IMG/VR virus record: IMGVR_UViG_3300029288_000066
Location: 64,001-128,000 of that record
Source: a virus
Taxonomy: Duplodnaviria; Caudoviricetes
Reading direction: 5' to 3' (one strand)
Length of the DNA: 64,000 bases
Within the stretch, counting starts at the first letter, position 1. Every line of letters begins with the position of its first letter. The position numbers were made by a program, and so were the translations under genes. Below are positions 19,989-62,166 of this stretch, one piece after another. Below the pieces are notes generated by a model. That model was not told the origin of the DNA and did not search any database. It worked only from the letters and a program-made list of their open reading frames with translations.

Positions 19989-20100
19989 ATCTAGTCAGAT
20001 TTTATATAAATAACTAAACATTTTCTAAATTTAGAAAAATTTTTTTCTTTTTTCAATCATTAAATTTTGTTGTTTTGTTTTTTTTTTATATATTTACAAA

Positions 20101-20340: not shown

Positions 20341-20341
20341 T

Positions 20342-20375
20342 AAAAGCCCTCTCTCCTTTAGGTTTGAGGGTTTTT
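20342..20375. terminator. Bidirectional terminator between tmRNA and the convergent HNH gene
   Basis: AAAAGCCCTC...GAGGGTTTTT. Confidence 0.65.
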
Positions 20376-21132
20376 ACATCTTATTCCTTTTGGTTATACA
20401 GTTATCAAAAGCATCTAAAGGTTGAAAATTTGTGTAATGATTTAGTCTATATATTTCTTCTTCTTCTGTTTTTGCAGATGATATTGGAATTATATGGTCT
20501 AGTTGCCAGAATTTATTCTTTATCATTTTTTCATTTTTAAATCTTCCAACGTTATTCCAACACATCCAAGGCTCAAATTTGCTTTCCAAATACAATTTAA
20601 ACTCCTCAAAAGAACATCCAAGTATTTGTTCAGTCTTTGTGTTTTTTTTAAAACCACTTGTTCTTAACGAGCTACTTATTAAGCTTCTAATGTTGCCGCT
20701 CAATTTATATAGCGGGTCTTCATTTCTCTTCCGCTTGTTAAAACTATTAAGGTAAGATGGGTTCTTTATTTTCCACAACTTATCATATTCTTTTTTATAT
20801 TCTGGATGAGTTATTTTAAACTTTATTGTTCTTTGTTTTATTTTATCTCTGTTCTTTTCTCTTGATGCTTTTGCTTTCTTTTTAGAACATAATATGCAAA
20901 AACAATGAAGCCCATCTTTCTTAGATTTGCTTTTCCAAAATTCTTCAATTGGGCTTTCTACTTTACAACAGGGGCATATTTTAAATCCACGTTTTGCTTT
21001 TTTTCTAATTAAACCACCTTCTCCTTTACATTTCTTACATACAGATGCATATCCGTCTTTTTTAGTTCTATTTCTATAAAACCATTTAACATCTTTTTCA
21101 ACACAGCAACATTTACAAAATTTTGTTTCCAT
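20374..21132 (-). CDS. HNH endonuclease with two N-terminal Zn-ribbon repeats
   Basis: CKCC..DGYASVCKKC, CPCC..DGLHCFCILC; ILGCS..WQLDHIIPIS..NHYTNFQPL. Confidence 0.8.
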   Translation of the reverse strand: METKFCKCCCVEKDVKWFYRNRTKKDGYASVCKKCKGEGGLIRKKAKRGFKICPCCKVESPIEEFWKSKSKKDGLHCFCILCSKKKAKASREKNRDKIKQRTIKFKITHPEYKKEYDKLWKIKNPSYLNSFNKRKRNEDPLYKLSGNIRSLISSSLRTSGFKKNTKTEQILGCSFEEFKLYLESKFEPWMCWNNVGRFKNEKMIKNKFWQLDHIIPISSAKTEEEEIYRLNHYTNFQPLDAFDNCITKRNKM

Positions 21133-31485: not shown

Positions 31486-32424
31486 TTAAATTATCCACTT
31501 AGCAATACGATTATCAAGAGAAAAAAGACAGTCCCTTTCTTCAACTTCTTCTTCAAGGATGTACTTTTTAAAATTCATGTAATACAAATTCCCTGGGCAC
31601 CCGAACAATGTTTTGTATGCTTGGAAAATTGTTTCATTTACATAAAAGAAAATCGTTTTTACATATATTCCTTTCGAGATTTTATTCATTTTAAAAATGG
31701 TTGGTTTAACCTCCATCCAAGTTTCATTGCTCATACGGCTCAATTGTATTTTTTGAACCACTTCAAGAATTTGCAGCATTCTTTCTCTTGCAGCAGATTC
31801 TTCATCTCCCAGATTCATTACAAGTTCATCATGAGAAACAAAAATAATATTATCTGGAGGAAGAATCTTTTCCAAATCTTCAACCAATTTCAAGATGTGA
31901 TAATGCTGAATATGTTGAAATCTCTTTGGGTTTAAGTTTCCAAAGACAACCTGCCTGAAACTTTTGCTGAATGAGACTACTGGATGAATTTTTAAATCAG
32001 CACATAATTCTATCCAACTTCTTTTCATTTCATTGTTCTGGTCAAAAATCTTCATAGACTGAAAATTTGCACTTGAGAAATCCAAAGAAAGCATAAAATT
32101 ACCTTCATACATTTTCAGGTGGTCTTTCGTATAGAACTTGGTCTGAGAATAATCAAATTCTTGGCACTTTTTATAAGCTTCTGACGTGGCTAAATAGTTT
32201 TTGATGGTTTCATATACATAGCCCATTTTGTAATGTCCTACGTTGTTATATCCATTTTCTTTCAACCAATCTTCAAATTCAGAATAATTATTTACAGTCA
32301 AAACAATATCCTTAAACTCAAAAGACTTTGAAAGTGTGTTGATATAGTATTCAAAATGTTCTTCAACAGGAATGTTGAGCTTAAAAAGCTTAGCGAATTC
32401 TGCAATCTCTTTAATCTTTTTCAT
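31486..32424 (-). CDS. Hypothetical protein with possible polymerase-palm-like motifs
   Basis: LSLDFSSANF and FVSHDELV; coupled to the upstream nucleotidyltransferase. Confidence 0.6.
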   Translation of the reverse strand: MKKIKEIAEFAKLFKLNIPVEEHFEYYINTLSKSFEFKDIVLTVNNYSEFEDWLKENGYNNVGHYKMGYVYETIKNYLATSEAYKKCQEFDYSQTKFYTKDHLKMYEGNFMLSLDFSSANFQSMKIFDQNNEMKRSWIELCADLKIHPVVSFSKSFRQVVFGNLNPKRFQHIQHYHILKLVEDLEKILPPDNIIFVSHDELVMNLGDEESAARERMLQILEVVQKIQLSRMSNETWMEVKPTIFKMNKISKGIYVKTIFFYVNETIFQAYKTLFGCPGNLYYMNFKKYILEEEVEERDCLFSLDNRIAKWII

Positions 32425-33592
32425 AGAATTCTTTTCTTATTTTATTTGTTAAATTTTCAATAAATTTATGGTCGACTTTGTTTGGAAGATTTGATTTTTC
32501 AAACAATTCATCCATTTTCGCAATTTTTTCTTCTGCGGTTTTAATCAAAGTGTCCAAATCAACTTTTCCGTGCCTGATATCAAGCAATTCTTTTGCATTT
32601 GGTCTTCTTACAACAATTCCTTTGCCTTCGGCAATTTCGATAGACATATCAATTAGCCTCATACAATGAAGCATGTTTTTCCCATCAATTTTTTGTCCAT
32701 GACTCTCAACATCAACCCATCTCTGCATATTTCTTGTTTTCAGCCAATTTTGATATTTGCTATAATCTTTGCAGTGCTGGGTATAAGCATCTTTGTTATA
32801 AGAGAAAACGCAAACTGGTTTTTCTCCCTTCGGAATAGAACTTAATCTTAAATTGTTGGAAATCCCTGCGTTTTCTGAGCCGCCTTCTTTTTCGAGACCC
32901 TTATATCCTAACCCAACGGTTTTGCTTTGTTCCTTAAGAACTTTTTTGTTGTGTTCTTTATCTACTTCTTCCATACACTTTGCAAAACAAAGATGTGCTT
33001 TCGAATCATAGAAAAGTGCGAACATATTCGTTGCGTTTGATACGTTTACGACGCCACAAAATTTTTGTTCATAATTATAATCCTTTAAAAACCCCTTCAA
33101 TTTTCTTGTTCCATATCCATCAATCACAAAGCAAAAGTCAATAGGGTTTTTTCTGGTTACCTTATTCTTTTCCCAGTTCATCATTTTATCCTGGCCTTTA
33201 GCTTTTTTTATTTGAGCTCTGGAATAGCCCCCAAAAGAATCAGCACATTTTTTTGTGATAAACTTATCCATTTCATTCAAAACCAAATCAAAAATTGGGT
33301 GTTTTGACACAACACAATCTTTGGGACTGTTCAAAAGCTCCAATAGTGTAGGATTTGCAGTTTCAATAAGCTGCATAAATTCGCTTAATTCAAATCCAAC
33401 AAAATCTTTATTAACGTGAACTTGTGGAATAAACCCGTACAAATAATCAGGAAGAATGTAAACAAATTTTTTGTCCACATCACTTTCTGGAGTATTCGTT
33501 CCATATGCTTGAGAACCGACAATTGTTTCAAAAACAATCCAATTGTTAGCTTTCAAAAATTCATAAAACTTTTCCGAACTTACATTTACCAT
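32411..33592 (-). CDS. Pol-beta-superfamily nucleotidyltransferase (YcgL-like)
   Basis: VGSQAYGTNTPESDVD, ANPTLLELL, DGKNMLHCMRL, LLDIRHG. Confidence 0.85.
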   Translation of the reverse strand: MVNVSSEKFYEFLKANNWIVFETIVGSQAYGTNTPESDVDKKFVYILPDYLYGFIPQVHVNKDFVGFELSEFMQLIETANPTLLELLNSPKDCVVSKHPIFDLVLNEMDKFITKKCADSFGGYSRAQIKKAKGQDKMMNWEKNKVTRKNPIDFCFVIDGYGTRKLKGFLKDYNYEQKFCGVVNVSNATNMFALFYDSKAHLCFAKCMEEVDKEHNKKVLKEQSKTVGLGYKGLEKEGGSENAGISNNLRLSSIPKGEKPVCVFSYNKDAYTQHCKDYSKYQNWLKTRNMQRWVDVESHGQKIDGKNMLHCMRLIDMSIEIAEGKGIVVRRPNAKELLDIRHGKVDLDTLIKTAEEKIAKMDELFEKSNLPNKVDHKFIENLTNKIRKEFYEKD

Positions 33593-47704: not shown

Positions 47705-48089
47705 CCACTTCGCTTTTATATAAACCCATTTCTTCAAGCATTTTATCAACCTTTTCCCAATCTATAAAAGGCCTTGGATGCAATTCTGGGTCGAACTTAA
47801 GAGGGACGCCCAGGGCAGCATCATCAATAATTAATTGGCCATAAGCTTTTGGACTTTTCGTCCAAGTGTGTTGGTCGGGGTTCTTTTGGATTCCGTATAA
47901 TGGGATTTCATTATCATTAAACCACTTAACCGCAGCGTCTAAAAATTCATCACTTCTCATTGTAAACAAAATGAGATTATGCCCGTTTTTAATAAGTTTT
48001 TTTAAAATTGGTACAGCACCAATATCCCCTCCAATCTCAGGGAAGCTATGCAACACTACAGTCCCGTCATAATCCAAAATTATATCCAT
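47697..48089 (-). CDS. HAD-superfamily phosphatase-like protein
   Basis: ILDYDGTV, LILFTMR, KAYGQLIIDD. Confidence 0.8.
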   Translation of the reverse strand: MDIILDYDGTVVLHSFPEIGGDIGAVPILKKLIKNGHNLILFTMRSDEFLDAAVKWFNDNEIPLYGIQKNPDQHTWTKSPKAYGQLIIDDAALGVPLKFDPELHPRPFIDWEKVDKMLEEMGLYKSEVVK

Positions 48090-48090
48090 A

Positions 48091-48432
48091 TTATATTTCT
48101 CTTTTTAATATCAAGATTTGTTTCTTTGATGTTTTAAGAAATATAAAGTTTTTCAAGAACAATGTCAAATTATTTTCGATGTTTGTGTCAAATAAATTTT
48201 CAAACCCAAAAATATGTATTTTAAGAGCCCAATCTTTATTTGATATGATTCCAAAGAGAAAGTCTCCAACATCAATAGTTTCCACTTTCCCAGATACAAT
48301 AGAACAATTAATATCGACATCTTCGGAAATACTTTCTCCGTTGATGGACATCTGCTTGTTTTTAAATCTAGCCTTTATATCTTGGCTAAACAGACCCTGC
48401 TGTTTTAATATTTCTGATAATTTGATTAGCAT
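48091..48432 (-). CDS. Hypothetical protein
   Basis: ECF-type promoter at 48440. Confidence 0.65.
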   Translation of the reverse strand: MLIKLSEILKQQGLFSQDIKARFKNKQMSINGESISEDVDINCSIVSGKVETIDVGDFLFGIISNKDWALKIHIFGFENLFDTNIENNLTLFLKNFIFLKTSKKQILILKREI

Positions 48433-48487
48433 ATACACTTATACGGAAAAACACGAAAAAAGTTCATATTTATAAAAAAATATTATT

Positions 48488-48760
48488 ATGAAAGAATTTT
48501 TAGAAAACTACAAGAAAAAAGACTGCAAAACATGGATTGGAAGTATGATACAAATTCTTGTTTTTAACAACCTGGCTAGATTAGGATTTTTTTCTCTTTT
48601 AACAATAATCGGCGGAATTGGAATTGGCATTTTTCAAAGCATTGCAACAATATGGGTTGTTTTATTTTTCTCTGGACTTGTTTATCTTGCAATATTCATT
48701 TTAGTTGCAATTGCTTTTGCATGGATTATAAACCCCATTAGAAGTTTGAAAAATAAATGA
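48488..48760 (+). CDS. Small membrane protein
   Basis: Two to three TM segments; TATTTATA at 48467. Confidence 0.65.
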   Translation: MKEFLENYKKKDCKTWIGSMIQILVFNNLARLGFFSLLTIIGGIGIGIFQSIATIWVVLFFSGLVYLAIFILVAIAFAWIINPIRSLKNK

Positions 48761-49182
48761 TGACTTTTATTTTTATTGTTATTTTGTTAATCGCCGCTGC
48801 AATAAGTGACGCAGCTATGGATACCATAGAATTTCACTTTGAGAGGTCTATATTCTCTGGCTTAAAAAAATGGGACAATTGGTTTAATCCTGCAGTGAGC
48901 TGGAAAAACAAATATAAGAATCATGACCCCCTACAAGGACCAGCGTTCTTTGGAAGTACGACGTTTCTTATTTGGACAACCGATGCCTGGCATTTTTTCC
49001 AAATGCTAATGCTAACCAGCTTTCAAGTTGCTATAATACTTGGAATAAATTATATATTTTTTCAAGGATTTTACTTTTGGAAAATATTGCTGATAGACAT
49101 TGGAATGTTATCAATAGCAAAGCTTCTTTATGGAACAATATTCGAAGCGTTTTGGAGAAAGATTTTTGTTAAGAAGAAATAA
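48757..49182 (+). CDS. Membrane protein
   Basis: AAMD..SWKNKY..FFGSTT..TDAWHFF; ATGA-coupled to the upstream gene. Confidence 0.7.
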   Translation: MMTFIFIVILLIAAAISDAAMDTIEFHFERSIFSGLKKWDNWFNPAVSWKNKYKNHDPLQGPAFFGSTTFLIWTTDAWHFFQMLMLTSFQVAIILGINYIFFQGFYFWKILLIDIGMLSIAKLLYGTIFEAFWRKIFVKKK

Positions 49183-49373
49183 AACTCATCAAGCAGAATG
49201 GACTTCTCTTGTTTCTGCTTTCGCATCCTTAAGATTATATTTCTTAGACACGGCCAATGTTTCTTTTCTGAAAAAAACACTAAGTAATTTTAATTTTAAT
49301 TTAGAACAAAATCCTAACTTTTTCATTTTTAATAGTATTTGTTATTAGTTTATACGAAATTTTTACGAAAAAG

Positions 49374-50057
49374 TTACCATTCCTTAGAAAAAATAGCTGC
49401 TGGATAATGTTTATGGGCATAGTCCATCCAAATTTTCATTATTTTTCCCTTTTCTTCTTGATTTATAATAGGATTTTCTTCCATAAAGTAATTAAGATAA
49501 CTGCTTGCTACGTCATCTATTGGAATCTTTTTTATTTTTGCCTCTCTGTAAAAACCAGCAATCATTGCTGGAATTTCATCCCTTGATACGAAATAACCAT
49601 ACTTATCTTCAAGTTCCACCCTTTTCCTTATGCTAAGAGGTTTTGCTCTTCCTGGAATATAGTTTTTTCCCTTCTGCTGGGTCAGATGCTCAATCTCATA
49701 CCTTACAACACGATTTAACTCAGCGTTTATGTCAACATACATGAGGCGCTCTATTTCTCTGTTTGGAGCATCTATGTCAACTTCCATTCTAACAGTTTTG
49801 GTACTAAGCAAAGTCTCTCCACCAATCCTATAAAAACCCCCTTCTTTATCTATGGTTCTTTTTACGAAAACATAAAGCTTCATGTTGATTGGCGTCTTAT
49901 ATTTAAAAAGATATCCTTCCTCTTTTTTTCTGCTGACCTTCGAATCTCTTATAAGCTTCCAGATATCGTTAACGATTTTTCCAGAAACCCAGTCAAACCT
50001 TCCCTCATTCAACAAGTCGTCAATAACTTCTCTTACTATTTCCCTTACAATATCCAT
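49374..50057 (-). CDS. Hypothetical protein with IVREIVREVIDDLLNE leader and degenerate zincin-like motif
   Basis: VRYEIEHLTQ (HExxH-like with the first His lost) and downstream EIPA; TATTTATA at 50080. Confidence 0.65.
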   Translation of the reverse strand: MDIVREIVREVIDDLLNEGRFDWVSGKIVNDIWKLIRDSKVSRKKEEGYLFKYKTPINMKLYVFVKRTIDKEGGFYRIGGETLLSTKTVRMEVDIDAPNREIERLMYVDINAELNRVVRYEIEHLTQQKGKNYIPGRAKPLSIRKRVELEDKYGYFVSRDEIPAMIAGFYREAKIKKIPIDDVASSYLNYFMEENPIINQEEKGKIMKIWMDYAHKHYPAAIFSKEW

Positions 50058-50101
50058 AAACAATAATCAACAATTTGTTTATAAATATTTAAAAAAAATA
50101 T

Positions 50102-50368
50102 CTATTTATCAGCCACTGGCTGCCATCTTAGTTTATCATTTTTTATGGCCTTATTTATCCACCTCATTAGAAACATAACCTTTTCTTGTATGTTAAACGT
50201 AGCATCACCAACCTCTGCTCTTTCGCTAACGTCAACAGGAACCGTATACATTAAGTCTTCAACTACATAATTATACATCAAATTAGAACCAATACAGCAA
50301 TCAAGTGTTGCCATATTGCCGTCTTTAACCATTTGTGTTACTGTGTGCTTTAGATTTTCCATCTTCAT
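50102..50368 (-). CDS. Hypothetical protein
   Basis: VPVD..EVGDATF..EK..LMRWI. Confidence 0.65.
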   Translation of the reverse strand: MKMENLKHTVTQMVKDGNMATLDCCIGSNLMYNYVVEDLMYTVPVDVSERAEVGDATFNIQEKVMFLMRWINKAIKNDKLRWQPVADK

Positions 50369-50479
50369 TAAATTTTGAAATCATTTCCTTCATTCTGTTT
50401 TCTCGCTTGATTAGCATATTCTTTAATTTCAACTTTGCTTCATCAGAGAGTTCTCCAATTGGGATAAGCGTTATACCAT

Positions 50480-51103
50480 TCATAATTTTTGTTCTTCTAA
50501 ACTGATTAAATATTCAAGCTCTTCATTTATTTCTTTTGAAAATTCTTTGTATAATTCTTTTCCAAGCTTTGTTCTAAACTTTAAAACCTTATAAAAACTT
50601 TCCTGATTCTCCAGCTGTTTTTTATAGTCAATTTTTGACTCCTTCTGCAAACCCAAATAATTTGCCTGCAGTCTCGTCGGTTCAAAAAGTTGTGTCATAT
50701 CAGCATCTCTTATTACCTTTTGCTGGGTACTTAATTTGTCGTCATCAATCTTATAGGGAAATTCCGTTGCATCAAGAATTTCATTAATTTTTTCTAAATC
50801 AAAATCAAGTTCACTTTCTTTCAAAAACTCCTTAACCCCTTCTTTAGCATTCTTTATGTTTACATCATCTTTCTGCTCTCCAGCCGTATGATTGTAATCG
50901 TGAAAAATTGCTGCAATTAATAGCTCCTTCATTTCTTTGTCACTTAGTTTTTCAACCTTACCAATGTAGTAAGAAAAAACCGTTACGATTATGTTGTGAT
51001 TTAAATTGTGATACGGAGAATAGAGAGATTTACTGTTCTCAATAATGAAGCTTAGCGCCTTGCCTAAACATTCAAATTTTTTAAAGACTTTTACGAAATT
51101 CAT
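50480..51103 (-). CDS. HD-domain phosphohydrolase
   Basis: PYHNLNH, AAIFHDYNH, IRDAD. Confidence 0.85.
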   Translation of the reverse strand: MNFVKVFKKFECLGKALSFIIENSKSLYSPYHNLNHNIIVTVFSYYIGKVEKLSDKEMKELLIAAIFHDYNHTAGEQKDDVNIKNAKEGVKEFLKESELDFDLEKINEILDATEFPYKIDDDKLSTQQKVIRDADMTQLFEPTRLQANYLGLQKESKIDYKKQLENQESFYKVLKFRTKLGKELYKEFSKEINEELEYLISLEEQKL

Positions 51104-51165
51104 ATACTTATATTTTAATTTTTAATAAATATAATGTTAAAAATTAAAAATATAAATACAATTTG

Positions 51166-51238
51166 TAGAAATGATTGGATTTGAACCAACGACCTTTTCC
51201 ATGTCACGGAAACGCTCTGCCAACTGAGCTACACTTCT
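51166..51238 (-). tRNA. tRNA-Val(GAC)
   Basis: Cloverleaf; anticodon arm TTTCC-GTGACAT-GGAAA; T loop TTCAAAT. Confidence 0.9.
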
Positions 51239-51242
51239 ATAG

Positions 51243-51343
51243 TAAGAGTCCGAAGTCTTTTTGCCCTTCCTCTTATCCATTCCGCCACAGAATGGCTTAA
51301 GCCTCCAGGGGATGACCGCTGACTGAAGGACTCTCTAGACCCC
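51243..51343 (-). ncRNA. Unidentified ~100-nt rod-like structured RNA
   Basis: Nested stems AGAGTCC/GGACTCT, AGTC/GACT and CCATTC/GAATGG; GC-rich, non-coding, between tRNAs. Confidence 0.45.
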
Positions 51344-51425
51344 GTATATCAGCTTTTACATTTTAATTTAAGTGACGGTTTAAACTTATAAATGTCACTT
51401 ATAAATATGTAAAAGTTTTGGGTTG

Positions 51426-51500
51426 TGGAAACACTTGGATTCAAACCAAGGACCCTCTGGTTGTAGGCCAGATGCTCTAAATCAGCTGAGCTATGCTTCC
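51426..51500 (-). tRNA. tRNA-Val(TAC), atypical C33
   Basis: Cloverleaf; TCTGG-CCTACAA-CCAGA. Confidence 0.85.
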
Positions 51501-51508
51501 GAAATTAG

Positions 51509-51581
51509 TGGGAGTGGAGGGAATCGAACCCCCTAAAAATTGGATGTAACCCAACTGCCCCAGCCGTTAGACGCCACTCCC
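51509..51581 (-). tRNA. tRNA-Val(TAC), divergent D arm
   Basis: GGGAGTG/CACTCCC acceptor stem; GTTGG-GTTACAT-CCAAT; T loop TTCGATT. Confidence 0.8.
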
Positions 51582-51589
51582 GTAAAAAA

Positions 51590-51944
51590 AATAAGATGAG
51601 CATAGCCAGAGTTCTGTTTTATTTTAGCATTTGTCTGGCAAAATGACTCGTCAAACTGCCGTTAGCCTCTACCAGGTCATTATAGAATTGAAGGTTCCCA
51701 TTCTAGACCCATTTGAGTTGCACACCGCCATTTGGCTATTTATTTAAAATAAACGTTGCACCAGTAATAACGATTGTAATTCGTGGCTTTCGGGTTACTG
51801 ATTTATTTGGCGCACTCTAACCCATTTTTCTATTTTGATGCCAATCCTAACAACTTTAACATTACAATCTTCTGATTCCTTCTTAATGATGTGCTCTGAG
51901 CTTCCTCATGTATTAATTACATGCGCTAAATCCTCTTTCTTATT
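51590..51944 (-). ncRNA. rnpB: RNase P RNA (ends approximate)
   Basis: Conserved regions in order: GAGGAAGCTCAGAGC (CR I), GTGCAAC, AGACAAATG (CR IV), ACAGAACTCTGGCTA (CR V, pairs with CR I to form P4); terminal ATAAGA/TCTTAT P1. Confidence 0.85.
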
Positions 51945-52814
51945 TTTATTAATTTTCCATCGTTTTTTTTGACAGTTATCCGAACAAAATCTTTTATGAT
52001 TATATTCTGTGTTAAATTTTTTCCCACAAAACCCACAAGTTCTATTTAAATAACTTTCTTTTACTATTGTTTCCCATTTGTGATTATAACATACAACTGG
52101 ACTTATTCCGATAAAATTTAAAAACTCAAAAACCTTTTTATTTGGTATTATAATTCTATTGGTACTCTCTTTTAAATAGGCATCAAACTCATAAAAATTC
52201 AATTTTTCAATTAAAACTTTATTATCTTCTTTGGAAAATGAATCAGTGCAAAAAACAGCCCCAACCTGATTATCTAAAGTCCCATCCCCTAAATACCAAT
52301 GCAGAACAACGGTTCTGTTAAGTTCTATATCTTTGGGAACTATTTTTTTTCCATTTGGATACCACTTTTCTCTTAATTTAGTAAAACACTTATTTGCTCT
52401 TGATGTTATAGTAAAATAATCATTCCCGTTGCTATATCCACTATGCCCTTTTCCGCTGTACTGTGACAACTCAAATCCAAGTTGTTCTGCTAAAAAATCA
52501 ATGTATTCTTTAAAAACACAAGAATGAGTAAAAGATGAATTTTGGTTATTGATTATTCTTTTGCAATGTCCATCAGAAAGTAAAGACCCATTTATAACAT
52601 CTAAGTCATTTTTTGTCAAAACTATTTCTTCTAAATTCTTTTTTGACTCATCTGAACACCTTAAAGAACAAAATCTGTTTGCCTTATGTTTCCTTTTTAG
52701 AAATTCAGCTCCACAAATTTCACATCTTCCTTTAATATAATATTCATAACCAGTACCGCTTTTACGTTTTTTTTTGTAAGAACCATCTTTTGTTATTTCG
52801 AAATCTCCTATCAT
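51906..52814 (-). CDS. LAGLIDADG homing endonuclease with flanking Zn ribbons
   Basis: INGSLLSDG and LHWYLGDG motifs, FCTDSF; 3' end overlaps the 5' end of RNase P RNA. Confidence 0.85.
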   Translation of the reverse strand: MIGDFEITKDGSYKKKRKSGTGYEYYIKGRCEICGAEFLKRKHKANRFCSLRCSDESKKNLEEIVLTKNDLDVINGSLLSDGHCKRIINNQNSSFTHSCVFKEYIDFLAEQLGFELSQYSGKGHSGYSNGNDYFTITSRANKCFTKLREKWYPNGKKIVPKDIELNRTVVLHWYLGDGTLDNQVGAVFCTDSFSKEDNKVLIEKLNFYEFDAYLKESTNRIIIPNKKVFEFLNFIGISPVVCYNHKWETIVKESYLNRTCGFCGKKFNTEYNHKRFCSDNCQKKRWKINKNKKEDLAHVINT

Positions 52815-52889
52815 ATATTTATTCTTTTATATAAATATATACAAAAAAGGAGAAAAAACAAAATTATTAAAAATAATGTTTCAAACAAC

Positions 52890-53132
52890 TTATTTTCTCA
52901 TCAGAATCCCACCCCTCCAGGTCAAACCTTTTCCCCAGTAATACTTTCCATCCTTTGACATTGCCCAAACATTCATGGCCTCATCCATGTATACTGGAAG
53001 ATTTTCAAATTGCTCCATGGCAATTTTTGTTTTTGTTCTTCTTCTAAAAATTCTGTTGGCAAATCTTTTATCTTTTTTTTCAGACCCCCCACCAATGCCA
53101 AAAATGGGAGTTTTTCTTCTTGAGTTGCTCAT
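52890..53132 (-). CDS. Small basic protein within the tRNA region, 80 aa
   Basis: MSNSRRKTPIFG..SEKKDKRFANRIFRRRTK..WAMSKDGKYYW. Confidence 0.7.
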   Translation of the reverse strand: MSNSRRKTPIFGIGGGSEKKDKRFANRIFRRRTKTKIAMEQFENLPVYMDEAMNVWAMSKDGKYYWGKGLTWRGGILMRK

Positions 53133-53229
53133 GTTTTCTAAATTTAAAAATTTAAAAGACCGCAGAGCTCCTTCCATTAAAATAACTTTTCATGATAATT
53201 TCTTTTTTATAAATATTTTTAAAAAACTG

Positions 53230-53301
53230 TTGTTCTGCAGGGACTCGAACCCCGACTATCTTCATCCAGAGTGAAGCGTGTTGCCATTACACTACAGAAC
53301 A
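53230..53301 (-). tRNA. tRNA-Gln(CTG)
   Basis: U1-A72 pair; CTTCA-CTCTGGA-TGAAG. Confidence 0.9.
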
Positions 53302-53306
53302 ATTTG

Positions 53307-53386
53307 TACCCTCCGCAGGACTCGAACCTGCAATTTCAGCTCCAATTACGATTACAAAGTTCGTAGCTTTGCTCGGCTAGGAAGGC
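53307..53386 (-). tRNA. Atypical tRNA-Arg(ACG)-like RNA lacking a D arm, with long variable region
   Basis: GCCTTCC/GGAGGGT acceptor stem, 8-nt connector, CAAAG-CTACGAA-CTTTG, ~23-nt variable region, GCAGG-TTCGAGT-CCTGC. Confidence 0.7.
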
Positions 53387-53391
53387 ATTTG

Positions 53392-53465
53392 TGACCCTTG
53401 AGGGATTCAAACCCCCAACCCCGAAATCCGTAGTTTCGTGCTCTATTCAGTTGAGCTAAAAGGCC
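53392..53465 (-). tRNA. tRNA-Arg(ACG)
   Basis: Cloverleaf; CGAAA-CTACGGA-TTTCG. Confidence 0.9.
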
Positions 53466-53470
53466 GTTTG

Positions 53471-53543
53471 TGGAACTGGGTGTCTTCGACACACCGACCC
53501 ATTGCTGTTCAGACAATTGCTCTTCCAACTGAGCTACAGTTTC
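53471..53543 (-). tRNA. tRNA-Phe(GAA), atypical T loop
   Basis: ATTGT-CTGAACA-GCAAT; T loop GTCGAAG; one acceptor-stem mismatch. Confidence 0.8.
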
Positions 53544-53551
53544 TTGTTTTG

Positions 53552-53625
53552 TGGAACCTCCCAGATTTGAACTGGGGCAAACCTGGATTTTCGGTCCAGT
53601 GCTCTACCAACTGAGCTAAGGTTCC
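53552..53625 (-). tRNA. tRNA-Phe(GAA), atypical C33
   Basis: CTGGA-CCGAAAA-TCCAG. Confidence 0.88.
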
Positions 53626-53724
53626 ATTAATTCTCAAATCTGAGCGGCTGGGTAGGTAGCATTTTGCATACACCACTCAAACTTGAGAATAATTTTTAAT
53701 CACAACATGTCAAAGACCTTGATG

Positions 53725-53800
53725 TTGCCTCACTAGGATTCGAACCTAGACATGCTTTTTCCGTCAAAGGGAAACGTGCGGCCAATTACACTATAAGGCA
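53725..53800 (-). tRNA. tRNA-Gln(TTG)
   Basis: U1-A72 pair; TTTCC-CTTTGAC-GGAAA; 8-nt variable loop. Confidence 0.85.
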
Positions 53801-53805
53801 ATTTG

Positions 53806-53878
53806 TGGAGATAGCAGAACTTGAATCTGCGACTTTCACGTCTTCAGCGTGACACTCTACCATCTGAGTTACATCTCC
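53806..53878 (-). tRNA. tRNA-Phe(GAA)
   Basis: TCACG-CTGAAGA-CGTGA. Confidence 0.9.
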
Positions 53879-53899
53879 ATTATTTAAAGAACTTTCTTG

Positions 53900-53973
53900 C
53901 TATTCTGCCTGGGCTCGAACCAGGACTCTTTTGAACCAAAATCAAACGTGTTTGCCAATTACACCACAGAACA
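53900..53973 (-). tRNA. tRNA-Gln(TTG)
   Basis: TTTGA-TTTTGGT-TCAAA; discriminator G. Confidence 0.9.
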
Positions 53974-53989
53974 ATATTTTAAAGAACAT

Positions 53990-54023
53990 AAAAAAACCCC
54001 AGGGTTTTTGACCTTGGGGTTTT
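53990..54023 (-). terminator. Attenuator terminator in front of the tRNA array
   Basis: Minus strand ACCCCAAGGT-CAAAA-ACCCTGGGGT followed by a T run, ending 16 nt before the first tRNA. Confidence 0.85.
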
Positions 54024-54043
54024 CATTAAATTATATATTTAGT

Positions 54044-54139
54044 TTAACGACATAACACAGCCAAGGTCTTTAGTGCTTGTTGCACAAAAAACACCACCTG
54101 AAAAAAGCGCTGACTTGATATGTTTGTTAAATTTTTCAT
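54044..54139 (-). CDS. Leader (attenuator) peptide MKNLTNISSQRFFQVVFFVQQALKTLAVLCR
   Basis: ATG with A-rich upstream region; codons 10-21 encode only Gln/Arg/Phe/Val; contains antiterminator strand GACCTTGG (54061-54068). Confidence 0.85.
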   Translation of the reverse strand: MKNLTNISSQRFFQVVFFVQQALKTLAVLCR

Positions 54140-54177
54140 TACTTTCTTTTTTATTTAAATAGTTCAATTTTTTACTT

Positions 54178-54202
54178 TCTACGCAAAGATACAAAAAAAG
54201 TT
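54178..54202 (-). promoter_or_regulatory. Overlapping ECF-type (AAC-N16-CGTAG) and host-type (TATCTTTG) promoters for the tRNA leader
   Basis: Minus strand AAC-TTTTTTTGTATCTTTG-CGTAGA. Confidence 0.7.
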
Positions 54203-54243
54203 ACATTAAATGCAAGAAAAAATCAAATTATTTTTATTTTATT

Positions 54244-54546
54244 TTATTTTGAGTCGTGTTTTTTAGCAATAGCTGGCGTCTTCATTTTCATTATTTGTCC
54301 AGCATTTGTTCTTCCATCATAGTCAACATCTACTACAATACTGCCACATTCAGTACACCATCTTGCCACTTGAGAACTTCCGCCATAAGTGGATTCTGCT
54401 TCTAATATCACAATTAATTTGTGATTTCCTTTTAAACATTCTTCCATAATTTCACTTTTATATTTTATTACACTTTTCCTGATGCTTGGTATCAGTCCAA
54501 CATTTATCAAACTCTTCACAATTCCTGCAGTGGTCAATGTATTCAT
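54244..54546 (-). CDS. Hypothetical protein
   Basis: RWCTECGSIVVD motif; start uncertain. Confidence 0.55.
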   Translation of the reverse strand: MNTLTTAGIVKSLINVGLIPSIRKSVIKYKSEIMEECLKGNHKLIVILEAESTYGGSSQVARWCTECGSIVVDVDYDGRTNAGQIMKMKTPAIAKKHDSK

Positions 54547-54602
54547 CTCCTATAACACCAAATAAATGCAATATATCTTGCATTGCATATCTTCGGTCAC
54601 CC

Positions 54603-54896
54603 TCACTCATCCCGTAAAGCCATTAATATTCCTTTAAGCACCTCCTTTTTGCTCAACTCATACATAAATTCAATCCTATAATATGGTTCTGTGCTCATTG
54701 TTGGAGTTGAATAGTGGACAAGCTTAAATAGAACAATATCTCTATTTTCAATGCTATCACATTTAACTGAACACACATCGCAGCCATCAACATTATAGCC
54801 GCTTTCTTTCATGTATTCTTTTATTTGTTGGCGTAAGTCTGTTTTTTCATTTATTACCACCAAACCAAAATCTTTTTTAATGTCACTGTTTTCCAT
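54603..54896 (-). CDS. Hypothetical protein
   Basis: ORF in the minus-strand run. Confidence 0.55.
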   Translation of the reverse strand: MENSDIKKDFGLVVINEKTDLRQQIKEYMKESGYNVDGCDVCSVKCDSIENRDIVLFKLVHYSTPTMSTEPYYRIEFMYELSKKEVLKGILMALRDE

Positions 54897-54903
54897 ATTA
54901 TAG

Positions 54904-55185
54904 TTATGCACAATTAAAACGTATATGAAAGTAATGCTGTGCTATGAATCCATCTTTTACTTTCATAAAAAAAGTTATCTCGTAATTTGGATTTAAATTT
55001 TTTGAACAATAGTGATTATATAATAAATCGTGCATTCTTTTCAAATCGTAATCTATTATAACATCTCCTTCTATATCCATTTCGTGTCCGCAAGAACAAG
55101 TCGTGTTAAATCCATTATCCCTTAATAATTTTACGATTTCTCTTACGGGCTCTTCAATATTTTCTTCGTACCAATTCATATTCAA
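54904..55185 (-). CDS. Hypothetical protein inside an attC-like cassette
   Basis: IVKLLRDNGFNTTCSCGH motif. Confidence 0.65.
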   Translation of the reverse strand: MNMNWYEENIEEPVREIVKLLRDNGFNTTCSCGHEMDIEGDVIIDYDLKRMHDLLYNHYCSKNLNPNYEITFFMKVKDGFIAQHYFHIRFNCA

Positions 55186-55205
55186 AAAATTTAATTATTA
55201 ACTGT

Positions 55206-55259
55206 GCATAACAAAGTGTAAAAAACATTAAAACGATTTTTTACACTCAACCGTTATGT
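55206..55259 (+). repeat. attC-like palindromic site
   Basis: GCATAAC...AGTGTAAAAAA/TTTTTTACACT...GTTATGT. Confidence 0.55.
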
Positions 55260-55436
55260 TTAATTATTTTTGTTTTAATTCTTCAATCAAAAGTTTTTTT
55301 ACTTGCTTTCTAATTTTTTTAGGTATCACTATTTCTGGGACGCCTTCTTCAACTGTTATTGCAGATTCAATTTGAAAGGCTTCGCATTTAATTATTTTGG
55401 TTTTCAGTTTTAAATTTATCTCTTTCATAATTTATA

Positions 55437-55625
55437 TTATTTTACCTTACGCACTTTCTTTTTAATAAAAATTTCCCTGTGTGTGTCCCATCTACAATAT
55501 TTCCGTTCAACACACATCGGTCCTTGTCCAAATATACATAAGCTACAAGGGTTTTTATCAAGCTGTTCCTTTAACGATTTGTCGTCATCGAAATTTTTAC
55601 TTTCTACAATAAGATTAAGTTCCAT
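55437..55625 (-). CDS. Small Cys-rich hypothetical protein
   Basis: ORF in the minus-strand run. Confidence 0.5.
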   Translation of the reverse strand: MELNLIVESKNFDDDKSLKEQLDKNPCSLCIFGQGPMCVERKYCRWDTHREIFIKKKVRKVK

Positions 55626-55634
55626 TTTATTTAA

Positions 55635-55928
55635 TTATTTGATTTGTTTACCGTTAAGTATCATTCCCAATGCAGAATCATCACTGCTGTCTTCCCAATG
55701 CTTTTTCAAAATTTGTTTTATTTCATCTATAAGACCCTTTTCAATTTTACCATCTAATTTGAGTATTACATTTTCATAAGCATCAGCCTGTGCTTTTTTG
55801 CAGATATAAACTGCATCGCTTCTGTCTAAGAATTGATGGTTTTCAAATTCTTCTTTGAACAGGTTTCTCCAATATCCTCCAGAACTAACTTGCCTACAAA
55901 AGATATCTTTCCATGATTCTTTTTCCAT
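55635..55928 (-). CDS. Hypothetical protein
   Basis: ORF in the minus-strand run. Confidence 0.6.
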   Translation of the reverse strand: MEKESWKDIFCRQVSSGGYWRNLFKEEFENHQFLDRSDAVYICKKAQADAYENVILKLDGKIEKGLIDEIKQILKKHWEDSSDDSALGMILNGKQIK

Positions 55929-55934
55929 ATTTTA

Positions 55935-56411
55935 TTATTCAGTATTTTTAAAAATTCCCTTTTTCTTTAAAAAATATTCTTTCAGCATTTCTCGTCTCAA
56001 CTCGATATGTTTCACTATCCATTCATGCCCAGCATCAACACGTTTTCCCCCATATTCATAATAATGACACAGAGGAAGCGTTGTTCTGCTCAATTGGGTT
56101 GCTTTGTCAAAATATTTTTTTAATTTTACATCTATGGCATTTTTTATCTTGGCTTTAATAACATCGTCAACAACTTTTTCTTCTTTCTTTACAAGTTCTT
56201 TGCCAAGCTTTTTTGCCGCATGACCGCTCAGAGTTTTAAATCTTTCTTCACCTGAAAACAACCAATACCAATATCCTTCGATGGAATCAAAGTCTCCATC
56301 TACTAATGTAATCGGAGTATAGGAAAAATTACTAAGCCATCTTCCAAGTTTCGTTTTTGCCCTGGAATATATGTTAATGTGGGTTGTTCCGTCTTCACCT
56401 TCAATAATCAT
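55935..56411 (-). CDS. Phage protein, possibly a distant NADAR-fold member
   Basis: DGTTHINIYS..LGRWLSNF..FDSIEGYW..AKKLGK. Confidence 0.6.
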   Translation of the reverse strand: MIIEGEDGTTHINIYSRAKTKLGRWLSNFSYTPITLVDGDFDSIEGYWYWLFSGEERFKTLSGHAAKKLGKELVKKEEKVVDDVIKAKIKNAIDVKLKKYFDKATQLSRTTLPLCHYYEYGGKRVDAGHEWIVKHIELRREMLKEYFLKKKGIFKNTE

Positions 56412-56431
56412 ATCAATTTTTATATAAATAA

Positions 56432-56511
56432 TGCTGGATTGCCAACTCACCGTATGGGGCGTGGAGAGTAGGACTCTCGGCCAATGTTGACAGTTTATGC
56501 CCACTCCAGCA
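56432..56511. ncRNA. Unidentified 80-nt GC-rich structured element
   Basis: TGCTGGA/TCCAGCA, TGTCAAC/GTTGGCA and GAGAGT/ACTCTC stems in an intergenic gap. Confidence 0.45.
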
Positions 56512-56515
56512 CATT

Positions 56516-56971
56516 TTATCTACTAACTTTAATGTCTGCTTCTGGGTACCTATAACAAGCACCCAGGTAATCTTCAACGAAATTAACAAGACCGTTGTAA
56601 GTGCCCCACCCGTTTTCTGGGTTAAGTTTTTTGTATTTTTCTGGTTCTATTTTAAGCTTGTGTAATCCTTCACGCAATGGGTCAATCAACTCTTTTGCTT
56701 TTGTAATTTCAAGCTCTTCTGGTCTCCATAAATGTTTGTATATGCCAGCCTCCTCAGCCATATCAGTCAAATTATGAGTGATATTCGCAGAAAAAACCTC
56801 ATCACTTTCAACCTCTTGCGGCACCAATTTGACAGGTTCTCTTCCAGGATTTCTTTTGTTCCATTCCTCTATGGAAATTTCCTTTGTTTGTCCGCCTTCA
56901 CGAACAAATATACCAGATGATTCTTTTACCACCGCAGCACCTTTAAGATTTAAAGAAATATCTAAGCTCAT
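56516..56971 (-). CDS. Conserved-looking phage hypothetical protein
   Basis: MSLDI..ANITHNL..M..AG..NPENGWGTY. Confidence 0.75.
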   Translation of the reverse strand: MSLDISLNLKGAAVVKESSGIFVREGGQTKEISIEEWNKRNPGREPVKLVPQEVESDEVFSANITHNLTDMAEEAGIYKHLWRPEELEITKAKELIDPLREGLHKLKIEPEKYKKLNPENGWGTYNGLVNFVEDYLGACYRYPEADIKVSR

Positions 56972-57206
56972 TTTAACCTCCCTTTATTCCAAAGTTATTT
57001 TTCCATTTAAAATATCTTCTCTGATTTTTTCTTTATCTTCAAAGACTTCTTTAATGAAGTGAACACTCTTTGGGTCGGTTAATTCTTCCAGCTGCTGTAG
57101 CAGCATAGCTCTGCCATCTGGAACATTCATTTGTATTACTTTTCCTTTTTCTTTTTCCATGCTTGTAAAATTGGTTTGTCTCTTATACGAAAAAATATTT
57201 TAAAGG

Positions 57207-57569
57207 TTACTTGGATATTGTAATTGTAGAATAAAAATCTATATTAACTGGTGTGCTTGCATATCTAACAAATTTGCCATCTAATTGTGAATCAATCTCT
57301 AAAAGCACATAATCTATTGGCATTTCAGCAAAATAAAGTTTGACGAGATTTTTCCCCATCTTCCCTGGAGAAAATTTGTAATATTTAATTTCTTTATTAA
57401 CTTCATTCAGCATATTCCAAAGATTCTCAGAAAAGATTTCTATCACTGGAGTATATATCGACAAATAATCCTTTTTTTTAGAAATCAAGCCATAATAATA
57501 AAGAAGCCTGTAAACGCCGCCTAATATTTCAAACGATGGAATCTTGTCTTTATATAATATTTCCATTTC
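57207..57569 (-). CDS. Hypothetical protein
   Basis: Likely start MEMEILY; start uncertain. Confidence 0.5.
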   Translation of the reverse strand, partial: EMEILYKDKIPSFEILGGVYRLLYYYGLISKKKDYLSIYTPVIEIFSENLWNMLNEVNKEIKYYKFSPGKMGKNLVKLYFAEMPIDYVLLEIDSQLDGKFVRYASTPVNIDFYSTITISK

Positions 57570-57918
57570 CTTCCTTTCTGTGCAAAAAACAATCTTGGGT
57601 ATGATACTGAAATGTGTTTGGAATAAATAAAACATCCTTTTTTTGCTTCTCACAATACCCAAAATTAATCATTGCTTCTTTTTTATTAAACTGGAACTTC
57701 ATAGATTCTGCTTCTGTCATCAGTCTATCCCACATTTCCAAATCATAAAATCTATCTTTATACCACTTTGCTTTTTTAATTATCTTTCCTCTTATTAAAT
57801 GAAAATAGTCTAATTGCATTTTGTGGCTAAAAGCCGATGATTCTTCAAATTTCTGAAGATTTCTTTTCATAAAAAAACAATCGTTACAATTACAGTCTAA
57901 TTTTTGTAACTCTATCAT
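57550..57918 (-). CDS. Hypothetical protein
   Basis: DCNCNDC..GYC..C.H motif. Confidence 0.65.
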   Translation of the reverse strand: MIELQKLDCNCNDCFFMKRNLQKFEESSAFSHKMQLDYFHLIRGKIIKKAKWYKDRFYDLEMWDRLMTEAESMKFQFNKKEAMINFGYCEKQKKDVLFIPNTFQYHTQDCFLHRKEGNGNII

Positions 57919-57936
57919 GCCTGCAGAATTACATTT

Positions 57937-58332
57937 TTAAGTATATTTTATCACAAAATCCACACAAGCGTTATAAACAGCCCTGTGAGATACTTGTAGA
58001 ATTGCATCTTGATAAATTTCTTTATCCGTTTCTTCTTTTTTTAGGTCACAGACCCCTTTATGCTGCACTACATTGACATATCCGTCTGGTTTTGATGTGT
58101 CGTGCCACTCTTGAATGAAAACCTCTGTCTCGTCATCTTTTATCGAAAGTAAAACTCTCATTTTATACCCGTCTCTTGGGTTATGGTTTATTTTGTGCAT
58201 AATCCACCTTAAAAATTCGAATCCAATTACTGGGTCATGTGGAGAAAATTGACTGTAATCTGCTTCATCATATCCAAGATACTTAAAAAGAATCTTGTTG
58301 TATTTTTTTGGATTTGCTAGATAATTTTCCAT
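57937..58332 (-). CDS. Hypothetical protein
   Basis: ORF in the minus-strand run. Confidence 0.6.
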   Translation of the reverse strand: MENYLANPKKYNKILFKYLGYDEADYSQFSPHDPVIGFEFLRWIMHKINHNPRDGYKMRVLLSIKDDETEVFIQEWHDTSKPDGYVNVVQHKGVCDLKKEETDKEIYQDAILQVSHRAVYNACVDFVIKYT

Positions 58333-60735: not shown

Positions 60736-62166
60736 TTAACGATTTCTTTTCATTTTTAATTCTCTTTGAGCCTCTCTTTCCTGAGTTTTCTTCTTTTCCA
60801 ATCTTCTTTCTTTAAAGGTAGGTCCAGAGTTTTTGTCCTTTATGTTTAATAAAGGCTTTAGTCTATCAATAATGGTAGCAGTCGGCTCAATAGCCGCTTC
60901 AATCATCTTTGAGCTTTTATACGAATTCGGAGCCTCATCTATAGTGCCACGCACAACCGAAGTAGAATATATTCCTTCCATTTGTTTTCTAAAAGTATCC
61001 ATGTCAAGAGTCTCTTTTGCTTTTGTTCTTGACATGCATCTTCCAGCCCCATGAGGTGAAGAAAAATTCCACTCAACATTTGATTTGCCTTCGCAAACCA
61101 ATATTCCATCTCTCATATTGAATGGGATAATCATTCTCTCTCCAACATAAGAACGGATAGCACCTTTACGAATAATAAAATCCCTAAAGTCAATAAAATT
61201 ATGGATACTTTCTATTTTATCAACTGGGATAATTCCTCCTAATATATTACAAACAATATTAAGCATCATTTCTCTGTTGAACTGTGCGTATTTTTGGGCG
61301 ACAAGCATATCAATAAGATATTCAAAAGCAGCGTTTCCTTCCAAAAATTCCATTCCTTTAACATCAAAATCGAAATCAAGGCCTAATTCTTTTTTTGCCT
61401 CAGAAATTAAAGAAGAAATCTTTGATTTATCTTCAGTGTTTTTTGTGATTTCTTCAATTTTGGCTCTTAAAATGTCGTTTCTGTTGTGGTCAAGTCCCTT
61501 CTTTGCCTTGTCCTGGTGATATTCACAAATCATTTTTCCAAAATTTCTTGACCCAGAGTGAATAGTTACCCAAACATCCCCACAACTATCTGATTTTGAG
61601 ACTTCTATAAAGTGATTGCCCCCACCGAGAGTTCCAATTGACAACTCAGCACGATTTGGCTTCATTCCAATCTTCTTACATAAAGCTCCAAAATCTTTAT
61701 AATCGTATTTACTGTAAGAATAGTTAGTTCCAAATTTTACATTATAAGCCCTAATAAAGGCCAGCATTTCATTATTAAGCACTTCCCAATGAAAGTATTT
61801 ATCAAATGAAAATTTATCATTAAAATTGAATTTAAATTCTTTTTCGTGAGTATTAATTCCCATAGGAACGTCTCTTCTTAATCTATCATCGAATTCTTTT
61901 AAAGTAATGGTTAATTTGCTACCAATGTTTGCTGATAGCATACCGCAGCCTATATCCACAGAGACGACATTAGGAATTATTTTAATTCCCATAGGCATTG
62001 TAAATCCAACACAACTTCCCTTCCCTGCGTGTCCGTCTGGCATTACAACAACTCTATTATCGAATGCAACATGACTAATCATCCTATAAACTTGATTAAT
62101 CATTTCCTGTTCAAACTCATCAATTGTTAAATATGCCGTTGTAAATTTCCCCTTAAGCTCTATCAT
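60736..62166 (-). CDS. rtcB: RtcB RNA ligase with basic C-terminal tail
   Basis: MPDGHAG, VDIGCG, GTLGGGNHFIE, HSGSR, HNFID, HGAGR, DEAPNSYK. Confidence 0.95.
   Translation of the reverse strand: MIELKGKFTTAYLTIDEFEQEMINQVYRMISHVAFDNRVVVMPDGHAGKGSCVGFTMPMGIKIIPNVVSVDIGCGMLSANIGSKLTITLKEFDDRLRRDVPMGINTHEKEFKFNFNDKFSFDKYFHWEVLNNEMLAFIRAYNVKFGTNYSYSKYDYKDFGALCKKIGMKPNRAELSIGTLGGGNHFIEVSKSDSCGDVWVTIHSGSRNFGKMICEYHQDKAKKGLDHNRNDILRAKIEEITKNTEDKSKISSLISEAKKELGLDFDFDVKGMEFLEGNAAFEYLIDMLVAQKYAQFNREMMLNIVCNILGGIIPVDKIESIHNFIDFRDFIIRKGAIRSYVGERMIIPFNMRDGILVCEGKSNVEWNFSSPHGAGRCMSRTKAKETLDMDTFRKQMEGIYSTSVVRGTIDEAPNSYKSSKMIEAAIEPTATIIDRLKPLLNIKDKNSGPTFKERRLEKKKTQEREAQRELKMKRNR

Follow-up and report, generated by a model that had tools for sequence, protein, structure and literature searches.

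A probable leader-peptide attenuator with tRNA genes as its output in an uncultured phage

Why should an array of tRNA genes be preceded by a very short open reading frame (ORF) that holds a run of codons read by those same tRNAs, and by a terminator placed between the two? The question is raised by a locus of an uncultured phage (Duplodnaviria; Caudoviricetes) represented by a single virus record of 228,886 bp and 32.8% G+C, IMGVR_UViG_3300029288_000066, of which the 64,000-nucleotide stretch analysed here, hereafter the window, comprises bases 64001-128000; a genome coordinate is the window coordinate plus 64000. On the minus strand of the window, a promoter-like block, a leader ORF, a predicted intrinsic terminator and tRNA genes for Gln, Phe, Arg and Val follow one another in a cassette that we call C1. 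We propose that C1 controls tRNA genes by ribosome-mediated transcription attenuation of the trp type, a reading to which we assign a probability of about 0.8. The same layout had been put forward in an earlier examination of the letters of this locus (the original prediction), and we find each of its parts, from the 31-codon ORF and its codon run to the terminator and the first tRNA, where that examination had placed them when the minus strand is read.

C1 begins with a promoter and 5' untranslated region (UTR) block at 54216-54150 (minus strand, as are all features of the cassette), with TTG at 54215-54213 and a TAnnTTTG-type -7 box at 54191-54184. The leader ORF of 31 codons plus stop (54139-54044) starts in an A-rich, Shine-Dalgarno-free context and carries as codons 10-21 the run QRFFQVVFFVQQ (54112-54077), directly 3' of which lies GACCTTGG (54068-54061), the candidate 5' strand of an antiterminator. 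The predicted intrinsic terminator (54023-53990) is made up of a hairpin at 54019-53997, with its 5' arm at 54019-54010 and its 3' arm at 54004-53997, and of seven T at 53996-53990; within the 5' arm, CCAAGGTC at 54017-54010 is the exact complement of GACCTTGG over 8 bp. The first tRNA gene starts at 53973, and the ~16 nt that separate it from the T-run are filled by a BoxA-like box (53987-53977), an exact match to GYTCTTTAANA. C1 therefore presents the parts by which a trp-type attenuator is recognized, namely a short leader ORF behind a promoter-like block, a codon cluster, a terminator and a mutually exclusive antiterminator.

Eight tRNA genes follow at 53973-53229, in the order Gln-TTG, Phe, Gln-TTG, Phe, Phe, Arg-ACG, an atypical 81-nt gene and Gln-CTG, and three Val tRNA genes (TAC, TAC, GAC) that have no leader of their own lie further downstream at 51581-51165. 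Rfam recognizes 11 tRNA genes downstream of the C1 leader and ARAGORN at its default setting 10, the eleventh being the second Val-TAC gene, which ARAGORN calls at a relaxed threshold. The count of 11 genes of four isotypes on which the original prediction relied thus holds; for the atypical gene, which that prediction had taken for a second Arg-ACG, the ARAGORN call is Gln-TTG (33.7 bits). Whichever call is right for that gene, the array contains no isotypes other than Gln, Phe, Arg(ACG) and Val, and its anticodons can read all 12 codons of the leader run, which samples five of the six distinct anticodons.

Leader codons and the arrays behind them

The correspondence in C1 recurs throughout the genome. 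ARAGORN finds 53 tRNA genes for 19 amino acids in the whole genome, all on the minus strand and grouped by isotype into six arrays: Gln/Phe/Arg-ACG/Val behind C1, Leu/Cys behind C2, Lys/Ile/Met behind C3, Asn/His/Thr behind C4, Asp/Gly/Ala/Tyr/Met/Pro behind C5 and Ser/Arg-TCT,CCT/Trp behind C6. The six array heads share one layout, in which a promoter leads into an ATG-initiated ORF 23-31 codons long, and behind this come a hairpin and U-run, a conserved box and then the tRNAs, C3 being without the BoxA-like box. All six leader ORFs hold a run of codons for amino acids of their own downstream array: beyond C1, these are a Leu/Cys run in the C2 leader (genome 139907-139827, minus strand, as for the leaders that follow), an Ile/Lys run with Met codons at the start in C3 (152618-152535), a His/Asn/Thr run in C4 (155521-155432), Gly/Tyr/Pro/Ala/Asp/Met codons in C5 (177733-177662) and a Ser/Trp/Arg run in C6 (194158-194072).

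To score the match, we took as readable the codons defined by the anticodons of an array under standard wobble and set every leader against every array in a 6 x 6 matrix. The diagonal is the maximum of each row and each column; of all 720 permutations, the true assignment scores highest. We also ranked each leader among stop-free 12-codon windows in the six frames of the whole 229-kb genome. C1 stands alone in first place with its 12 readable codons, the next best locus having 10, which bears out the earlier claim that every codon of the run can be read by an encoded tRNA and makes this the sole such stretch in the genome. C4 is likewise uniquely first, and C3 (tied 2-6), C6 (tied 2-5), C2 (tied 5-25) and C5 (tied 8-23) also rank high. 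It is not by chance that each of these rare loci lies so close to its matching array, within a few hundred bases on the upstream side.

The comparison could be extended to two other phage records. Within the phage collection, blastn searches for close DNA relatives returned isolated tRNA matches only, exact-pattern scans of IMG/VR for the promoter block and an extended form of the box gave no match, and the ORF upstream of the C1 leader, used as a query, led to one locus (48% identity) without tRNAs. A homologue of the phage's RtcB ligase with 52% identity led to IMGVR_UViG_3300020048_000063, in which an array of Pro, Ala x2, Thr, Gly x3, Val x2, Thr x2 and Arg-TCT genes is headed by a 35-codon ORF (L014 4269-4162, minus strand) whose run consists almost only of Arg (AGG/AGA), Thr, Val, Ala, Pro and Gly codons. 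A 9-nt segment right after this run is complementary to the 5' arm of the terminator that follows, and a BoxA-like box stands directly before the first tRNA. Between the terminator and the tRNAs lies a 225-aa ORF with a class II aminoacyl-tRNA synthetase core (PF00587, 30.7 bits; L014 3380-4057, minus strand), so placed that the leader would co-regulate a synthetase-like protein with the tRNAs. The second record, LR745206.1 (public, 634,780 bp, 61 tRNA matches), has matched leaders with terminators at three of the five array heads examined, with codons for His/Lys/Phe/Ser/Trp, for Met/Asn/Leu/Thr/Val/Ile/Arg and for Pro/Gln/Asp, respectively.

With these four cassettes added to the six of the present genome, the true pairing of leaders with arrays is equalled by none of 100,000 random pairings. 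Co-variation of leader codons with array content was the comparison that the original prediction had called for, and the ten cassettes together support the trp-type layout it had recognized in C1. The correspondence reaches the level of isoacceptors, most anticodons of each array being sampled at least once by its own leader. In all four leaders that contain Arg codons, the codon family follows the anticodon of the array, CGC going with ACG and AGG/AGA with TCT/CCT; the Thr codons ACG, ACC and ACA stand before anticodons CGT, GGT and TGT; the Ile and Lys codons ATA and AAG precede an array that carries Ile-TAT and Lys-CTT; and a Ser-GCT gene, called at a relaxed threshold, fits the AGY codons of the Ser leader.

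This agreement bears on what the cassettes sense. The same attenuator might have amino-acid starvation as its physiological signal, responding to uncharged tRNA for Gln, Arg, Phe and Val rather than to the state of the tRNA pool. Leader-peptide attenuators cannot distinguish an absent from an uncharged tRNA, as is established for trp and his, and runs for several amino acids resemble the multivalent ilv leaders. On the other hand, making tRNAs cannot relieve a shortage of amino acids, and it would be pointless for the sensing of arginine that the Arg codon family tracks the anticodon of its own array; leaders also sample nearly all isoacceptors of the array they precede, and the phage carries genes for the RNA-repair proteins RtcB and RlaP. 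We therefore regard starvation as an unlikely natural signal. A ribosome-free mode, in which the codon runs would pair directly with tRNA anticodons in the manner of a T-box specifier, fares far worse. The codons are complementary to array anticodons by definition, which is all that speaks for it; the runs are in frame within ORFs that extend from ATG to stop, and they are contiguous, an arrangement in which several tRNAs would not fit side by side. Rfam gave no match to the T-box family in 48000-58000 at E values up to 1, nor did we see a T-box-like acceptor-binding bulge, and we give this mode next to no credence.

Terminators, alternative pairing and the predicted switch

A strong hairpin with a U-run lies behind all six leaders of the genome, with predicted energies of -11 to -21 kcal/mol (-11.3 in C1), and the best duplex that the upstream RNA can form with the 5' arm of the terminator falls directly 3' of the codon run. 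Judged against dinucleotide shuffles of the upstream RNA, this duplex is significant in C1 (-13.1 kcal/mol, p 0.002), C2 (-16.7 kcal/mol, p 0.002), C3 (-13.2 kcal/mol, p 0.01) and C4 (-15.8 kcal/mol, p <0.002). The terminator sequences differ from cassette to cassette, which opens the pairing to a test of covariation. About seven of the ten cassettes have, immediately behind the run, a segment that pairs with the 5' arm of their own terminator; over all ten, own-arm duplexes average -12.5 kcal/mol vs -7.2 for mismatched cassettes, 6 of 10 arms find their best partner in their own leader, and no random pairing in 100,000 reaches the observed total. The exact complementarity of GACCTTGG and CCAAGGTC, proposed earlier as a structure exclusive of the terminator, is confirmed, and we regard the terminator/antiterminator pair as real and as co-varying between cassettes.

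The position of the pairing relative to the run agrees with a switch set by the ribosome. In a model of the nascent transcript, in which the RNA ends at the 5' arm and a ribosome footprint is placed at each codon in turn, eight of the ten cassettes keep the 5' arm sequestered for A-site positions up to approximately the end of the run and free it once the ribosome passes. The original prediction had worried that stalls at the last two Gln codons of C1 might still mask the antiterminator; this concern is mostly removed, as only the last Gln codon lies beyond the boundary, and a stall there masks the antiterminator strand in the footprint model.

We infer that the leader is translated and that read-through of the terminator is regulated. 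Transcription would begin near 54190, at the promoter, with translation of the leader ORF under way as it emerges from the polymerase. With rapid decoding of the Gln, Arg (CGN), Phe and Val codons of the run, the ribosome would cover 54068-54061 and reach the stop codon, the antiterminator strand would be masked, the hairpin at 54019-53997 would form and the transcript would end at the T-run. Where any codon of the run is decoded slowly for want of charged tRNA, the ribosome would wait in the run and leave 54068-54061 free to pair with the 5' arm of the terminator, and RNA polymerase would read through into the BoxA-like box, a possible loading site for host Nus factors that would guard the array against Rho, and on into the tRNAs that relieve the shortage. 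Six codon-matched cassettes would in this way place separate negative feedback on the supply of charged tRNA for each tRNA set. When one of two tRNA-Phe genes is lost, the pheA attenuator is derepressed 6- to 7-fold (PMC3082878), and leader-peptide attenuators therefore respond to tRNA dosage. Candidate triggers in nature may include tRNA destruction by a host defence nuclease, a decaying host pool once the host is shut off, a lack of charging and codon mismatch. For giant phages at large, we consider it likely that the tRNA supply is modular and tunes itself, with each isotype-sorted array under its own codon-level sensor and the missing set transcribed after nuclease cleavage, decay or codon mismatch; the cassettes would then be the first class of attenuators to put out the very tRNAs they sense, and would be widespread in huge phages.

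Several observations weigh against this account. The runs include a number of codons for which the array behind them holds no cognate tRNA, such as Lys and Ile codons in the C4 leader and Ser in that of C3, and the Val genes lie 2.4 kb downstream of the C1 leader behind two ORFs. The antiterminator duplex is weak in C5 (-10.2 kcal/mol, shuffle p 0.2) and absent in C6 (-6.3 kcal/mol, p 0.8), it is weak in one cassette of LR745206.1, and two of the five array heads examined in that record have no leader. Equilibrium folding with the full terminator lets the terminator win at most stall positions, and the switch must therefore be kinetic; the trp 3:4 hairpin is likewise the most stable structure of its leader, and the trp switch is also kinetic. 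Equilibrium folding with the whole terminator was accordingly set aside as the wrong model for a kinetic switch, and the nascent-transcript model was used instead. In that model, C1 RNA free of ribosomes already favours the antiterminator, so that untranslated RNA would antiterminate and termination would need tight coupling of transcription and translation by a closely following ribosome, of a kind that the likely host, a member of the Bacteroidota, is not known to show.

The cassette that lacks the alternative pairing invites a different use of leader translation, acting through Rho-dependent polarity, protection from RNase or processing of the precursor rather than through the intrinsic terminator. 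C6 has a matched leader without an antiterminator, and the BoxA-like boxes suggest that Rho and Nus are involved. Under Rho-dependent polarity, however, a stalled ribosome would cut tRNA output, a positive feedback on the shortage and thus of the wrong sign, and these routes leave aside the co-varying antiterminator found right after the run in about 7-8 of the 10 cassettes; we think it quite improbable that they replace the intrinsic terminator as the means of control. C6 also has a 50-codon ORF upstream of its leader ORF (genome 194307-194155, minus strand), the stop of which overlaps the leader start (ATGA). With no detectable antiterminator and this preceding, overlapping ORF, C6 may work in a different mode. 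C3 departs from the others as well: it is without the shared promoter block and the BoxA-like box, and a second mini-ORF of 10 Lys-rich codons (genome 152445-152413, minus strand) lies between its leader terminator and the first Lys tRNA.

Promoters, BoxA-like boxes and neighbouring genes

The heads of the cassettes combine a constant module with variable parts. The promoter block is near-identical in C1, C2, C4 and C5, and the 5' UTR that follows it is also common to C1, C2 and C4; C6 has a variant of the shared block, and the promoter of C3 is different. Behind the constant promoter module, the leader ORFs, terminators and antiterminator strands diverge. The combination of TTG with a TAnnTTTG-type -7 element is what we take to be the Bacteroidota type of promoter. 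Among the long ORFs of the phage, a Shine-Dalgarno core is found in only 13 of 135 and start regions are A-rich, a start context without a Shine-Dalgarno sequence that the leaders of C1-C4 share.

The BoxA consensus GYTCTTTAANA was derived by Baniulyte et al. for gamma-proteobacteria, not for Bacteroidota (PMC5725501). C1 has what this consensus describes, an exact match upstream of a stable-RNA operon, although the consensus is a gamma-proteobacterial one. With G allowed at the eighth position, 20 boxes of the BoxA type occur in the genome where ~5 would be expected, an enrichment of about 4-fold; 16 of the 20 are on the coding strand, and 12 of these 16 lie within 200 nt of a tRNA gene. C1 itself has a second BoxA-like box with one mismatch, at 53718-53708 in a 98-nt gap of the tRNA block. 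In our reading, the box would recruit Nus factors and thereby shield a long untranslated array from Rho.

The boxes also bear on whether the leader and the array belong together. The small ORF and its terminator could be a separate unit, either a peptide gene or the end of an upstream operon, with the tRNAs transcribed from a promoter of their own that includes the conserved box. The box does stand at a fixed place before arrays and also occurs behind some tRNAs, the phage may use promoters of a kind of its own, and the Leu/Cys leader is superficially like a lipoprotein signal peptide. Against this, the ten matches between leader and array codons and the pairing of leaders with their own terminator arms would be left unexplained, and the box is the exact BoxA RNA consensus, unlike the TAnnTTTG-type promoter box of the genome. 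In C1, moreover, the box takes up all of the ~16 nt that part the T-run from the first tRNA, and there is therefore no room for a separate promoter; the box would be transcribed by read-through only. We judge two independent units to be very improbable and retain the attenuator as the reading of the locus.

The distance to the Val genes, which the original prediction had entered as a caveat, can be put in context. Between the eight proximal tRNA genes and the Val genes lies an insertion (51906-53177, minus strand) with a 95-aa ORF without a family match and a 302-aa LAGLIDADG homing endonuclease (51906-52814). We looked for a strong minus-strand terminator upstream of the Val genes and found none, nor is there a leader there. 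Because both are absent, the Val genes fit the same operon despite the 2.4 kb, and they are best read as the distal part of the C1 operon, apparently split by the insertion of a mobile homing endonuclease. Gaps of ~830-1040 bp also interrupt other arrays between tRNAs (genome 138398-139341, 151024-152062, 154178-155100, 175353-176182, 176259-177292 and 192893-193899), and HNH-type endonuclease motifs are encoded in at least two of them. Mobile endonucleases thus appear to insert often into the tRNA arrays, and Rfam gave no match to group I introns around the endonuclease ORFs.

Other RNA features lie within or near the arrays. Repeats that resemble tRNAs and start with GTGGCAAT stand right after a BoxA-like box at genome 139637-139708, 155227-155299, ~153950 and ~175200 (minus strand); Rfam gives them only weak tRNA or YrlA (Y RNA-like) matches, and two of the arrays have such a repeat as the first product after the predicted attenuator. 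A tRNA with anticodon CTA (genome 196604-196678, minus strand), labelled Pyl by ARAGORN, is an amber suppressor. Genome-wide recoding of TAG was considered as an explanation for it and is not obvious: TAG read-through lengthens the long ORFs by only ~5%, and TAG ends 11 of 135. ARAGORN also calls a permuted tmRNA in the window at 20078-20424 (plus strand, opposite to nearly all genes), possibly a false positive. A GOLLD RNA (RF02032, 185.9 bits against a gathering score of 150) occupies genome 168325-168729 (minus strand), with BoxA-like boxes upstream at 169104 and 169445, and a match to the Bacteroidales-type small signal recognition particle (SRP) RNA (RF04183, 53.3 bits, gathering score 55.2), also preceded by a BoxA-like box, lies at genome ~169191-169293 (minus strand).

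The promoter type, the Shine-Dalgarno-free starts and this sub-threshold SRP RNA match together suggest a host among the Bacteroidota. Within the window, the minus strand also encodes the RtcB tRNA-splicing/repair ligase (60736-62166; phrog_1075, E 8.5e-118) and an RNA-repair nucleotidyltransferase of the RlaP family (32411-33592; PF10127). The two look like a tRNA-repair toolkit beside the regulated arrays, which would fit a concern with tRNA damage.

Known systems and biological meaning

The cassettes closely resemble the leaders of trpL, hisL, pheL, leuL, thrL and ilvGMEDA in having a short ORF, clustered regulatory codons, a terminator and an exclusive antiterminator 5' strand just 3' of the codons, and in reading the supply of charged tRNA through the position of the ribosome, for several amino acids at once as in ilv. 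They differ in their output, which is biosynthetic enzymes in the amino-acid operons and tRNA genes in the phage. Unlike those leaders, moreover, the phage leaders sample single isoacceptors or codon families, for up to six or seven amino acids per leader, and they are phage-borne, arranged as six parallel cassettes with a promoter module common to most of them and a BoxA-like box behind their terminators. The pheST operon of E. coli, with its pheM leader, offers the nearer likeness of leader-peptide attenuation applied to a gene of the translation apparatus under feedback from charged tRNA, an output to which the ORF with a synthetase core in IMGVR_UViG_3300020048_000063 may be compared; pheST, however, regulates a synthetase rather than tRNA genes and senses a single amino acid.

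Two further systems share parts of this logic. T-box riboswitches also read tRNA status by codon-anticodon recognition and act through a switch between terminator and antiterminator, but a T-box recognizes a single uncharged tRNA by direct binding, with no ribosome involved, and the genes under T-box control are those for synthetases and amino-acid genes. As in BoxA/Nus antitermination of rrn operons, a box that matches GYTCTTTAANA exactly stands ahead of long untranslated stable-RNA operons, but the candidate box of the phage lies downstream of a putatively conditional terminator in a tRNA operon and its consensus is gamma-proteobacterial rather than of the Bacteroidota. As for phage tRNA arrays that replace a depleted host pool, the present genome is alike in its 53 or more tRNA genes for 19 amino acids, accompanied by RtcB and RlaP; the published accounts that we found treat such arrays as simply expressed, whereas those described here appear to be gated by demand.

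Transfer RNA genes are usually described as controlled at their promoters, by growth rate and the stringent response. The original prediction knew of no attenuator whose output is the very tRNAs that it senses, and our full-text literature search turned up no report, from phages or from bacteria, of tRNA genes under leader-peptide attenuation. One possible precedent, an attenuator-like leader of E. coli pheU/pheV, did not stand: upstream of K-12 pheV there is a promoter only, with no Phe-rich ORF or terminator, and pheU/pheV transcripts are reported with leaders of 3-4 nt (PMC7049720). The mechanism itself is classic, and what would be new is the regulated product, the multivalent sensing at the level of isoacceptors, the six-fold modular use in one phage and the coupling to BoxA.

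If our reading is correct, the paradigm of attenuation would extend to a new class of regulated product, and phage tRNA arrays would be demand-regulated modules rather than passive cargo. This would provide a handle on why large phages carry near-complete sets of tRNAs, whether to replace a damaged or decaying host pool or to tune codon usage. As compact, modular sensors of decoding speed, the cassettes could be used to report when tRNAs are depleted, as by anticodon nucleases, and would aid the annotation of tRNA operons in uncultured phages.

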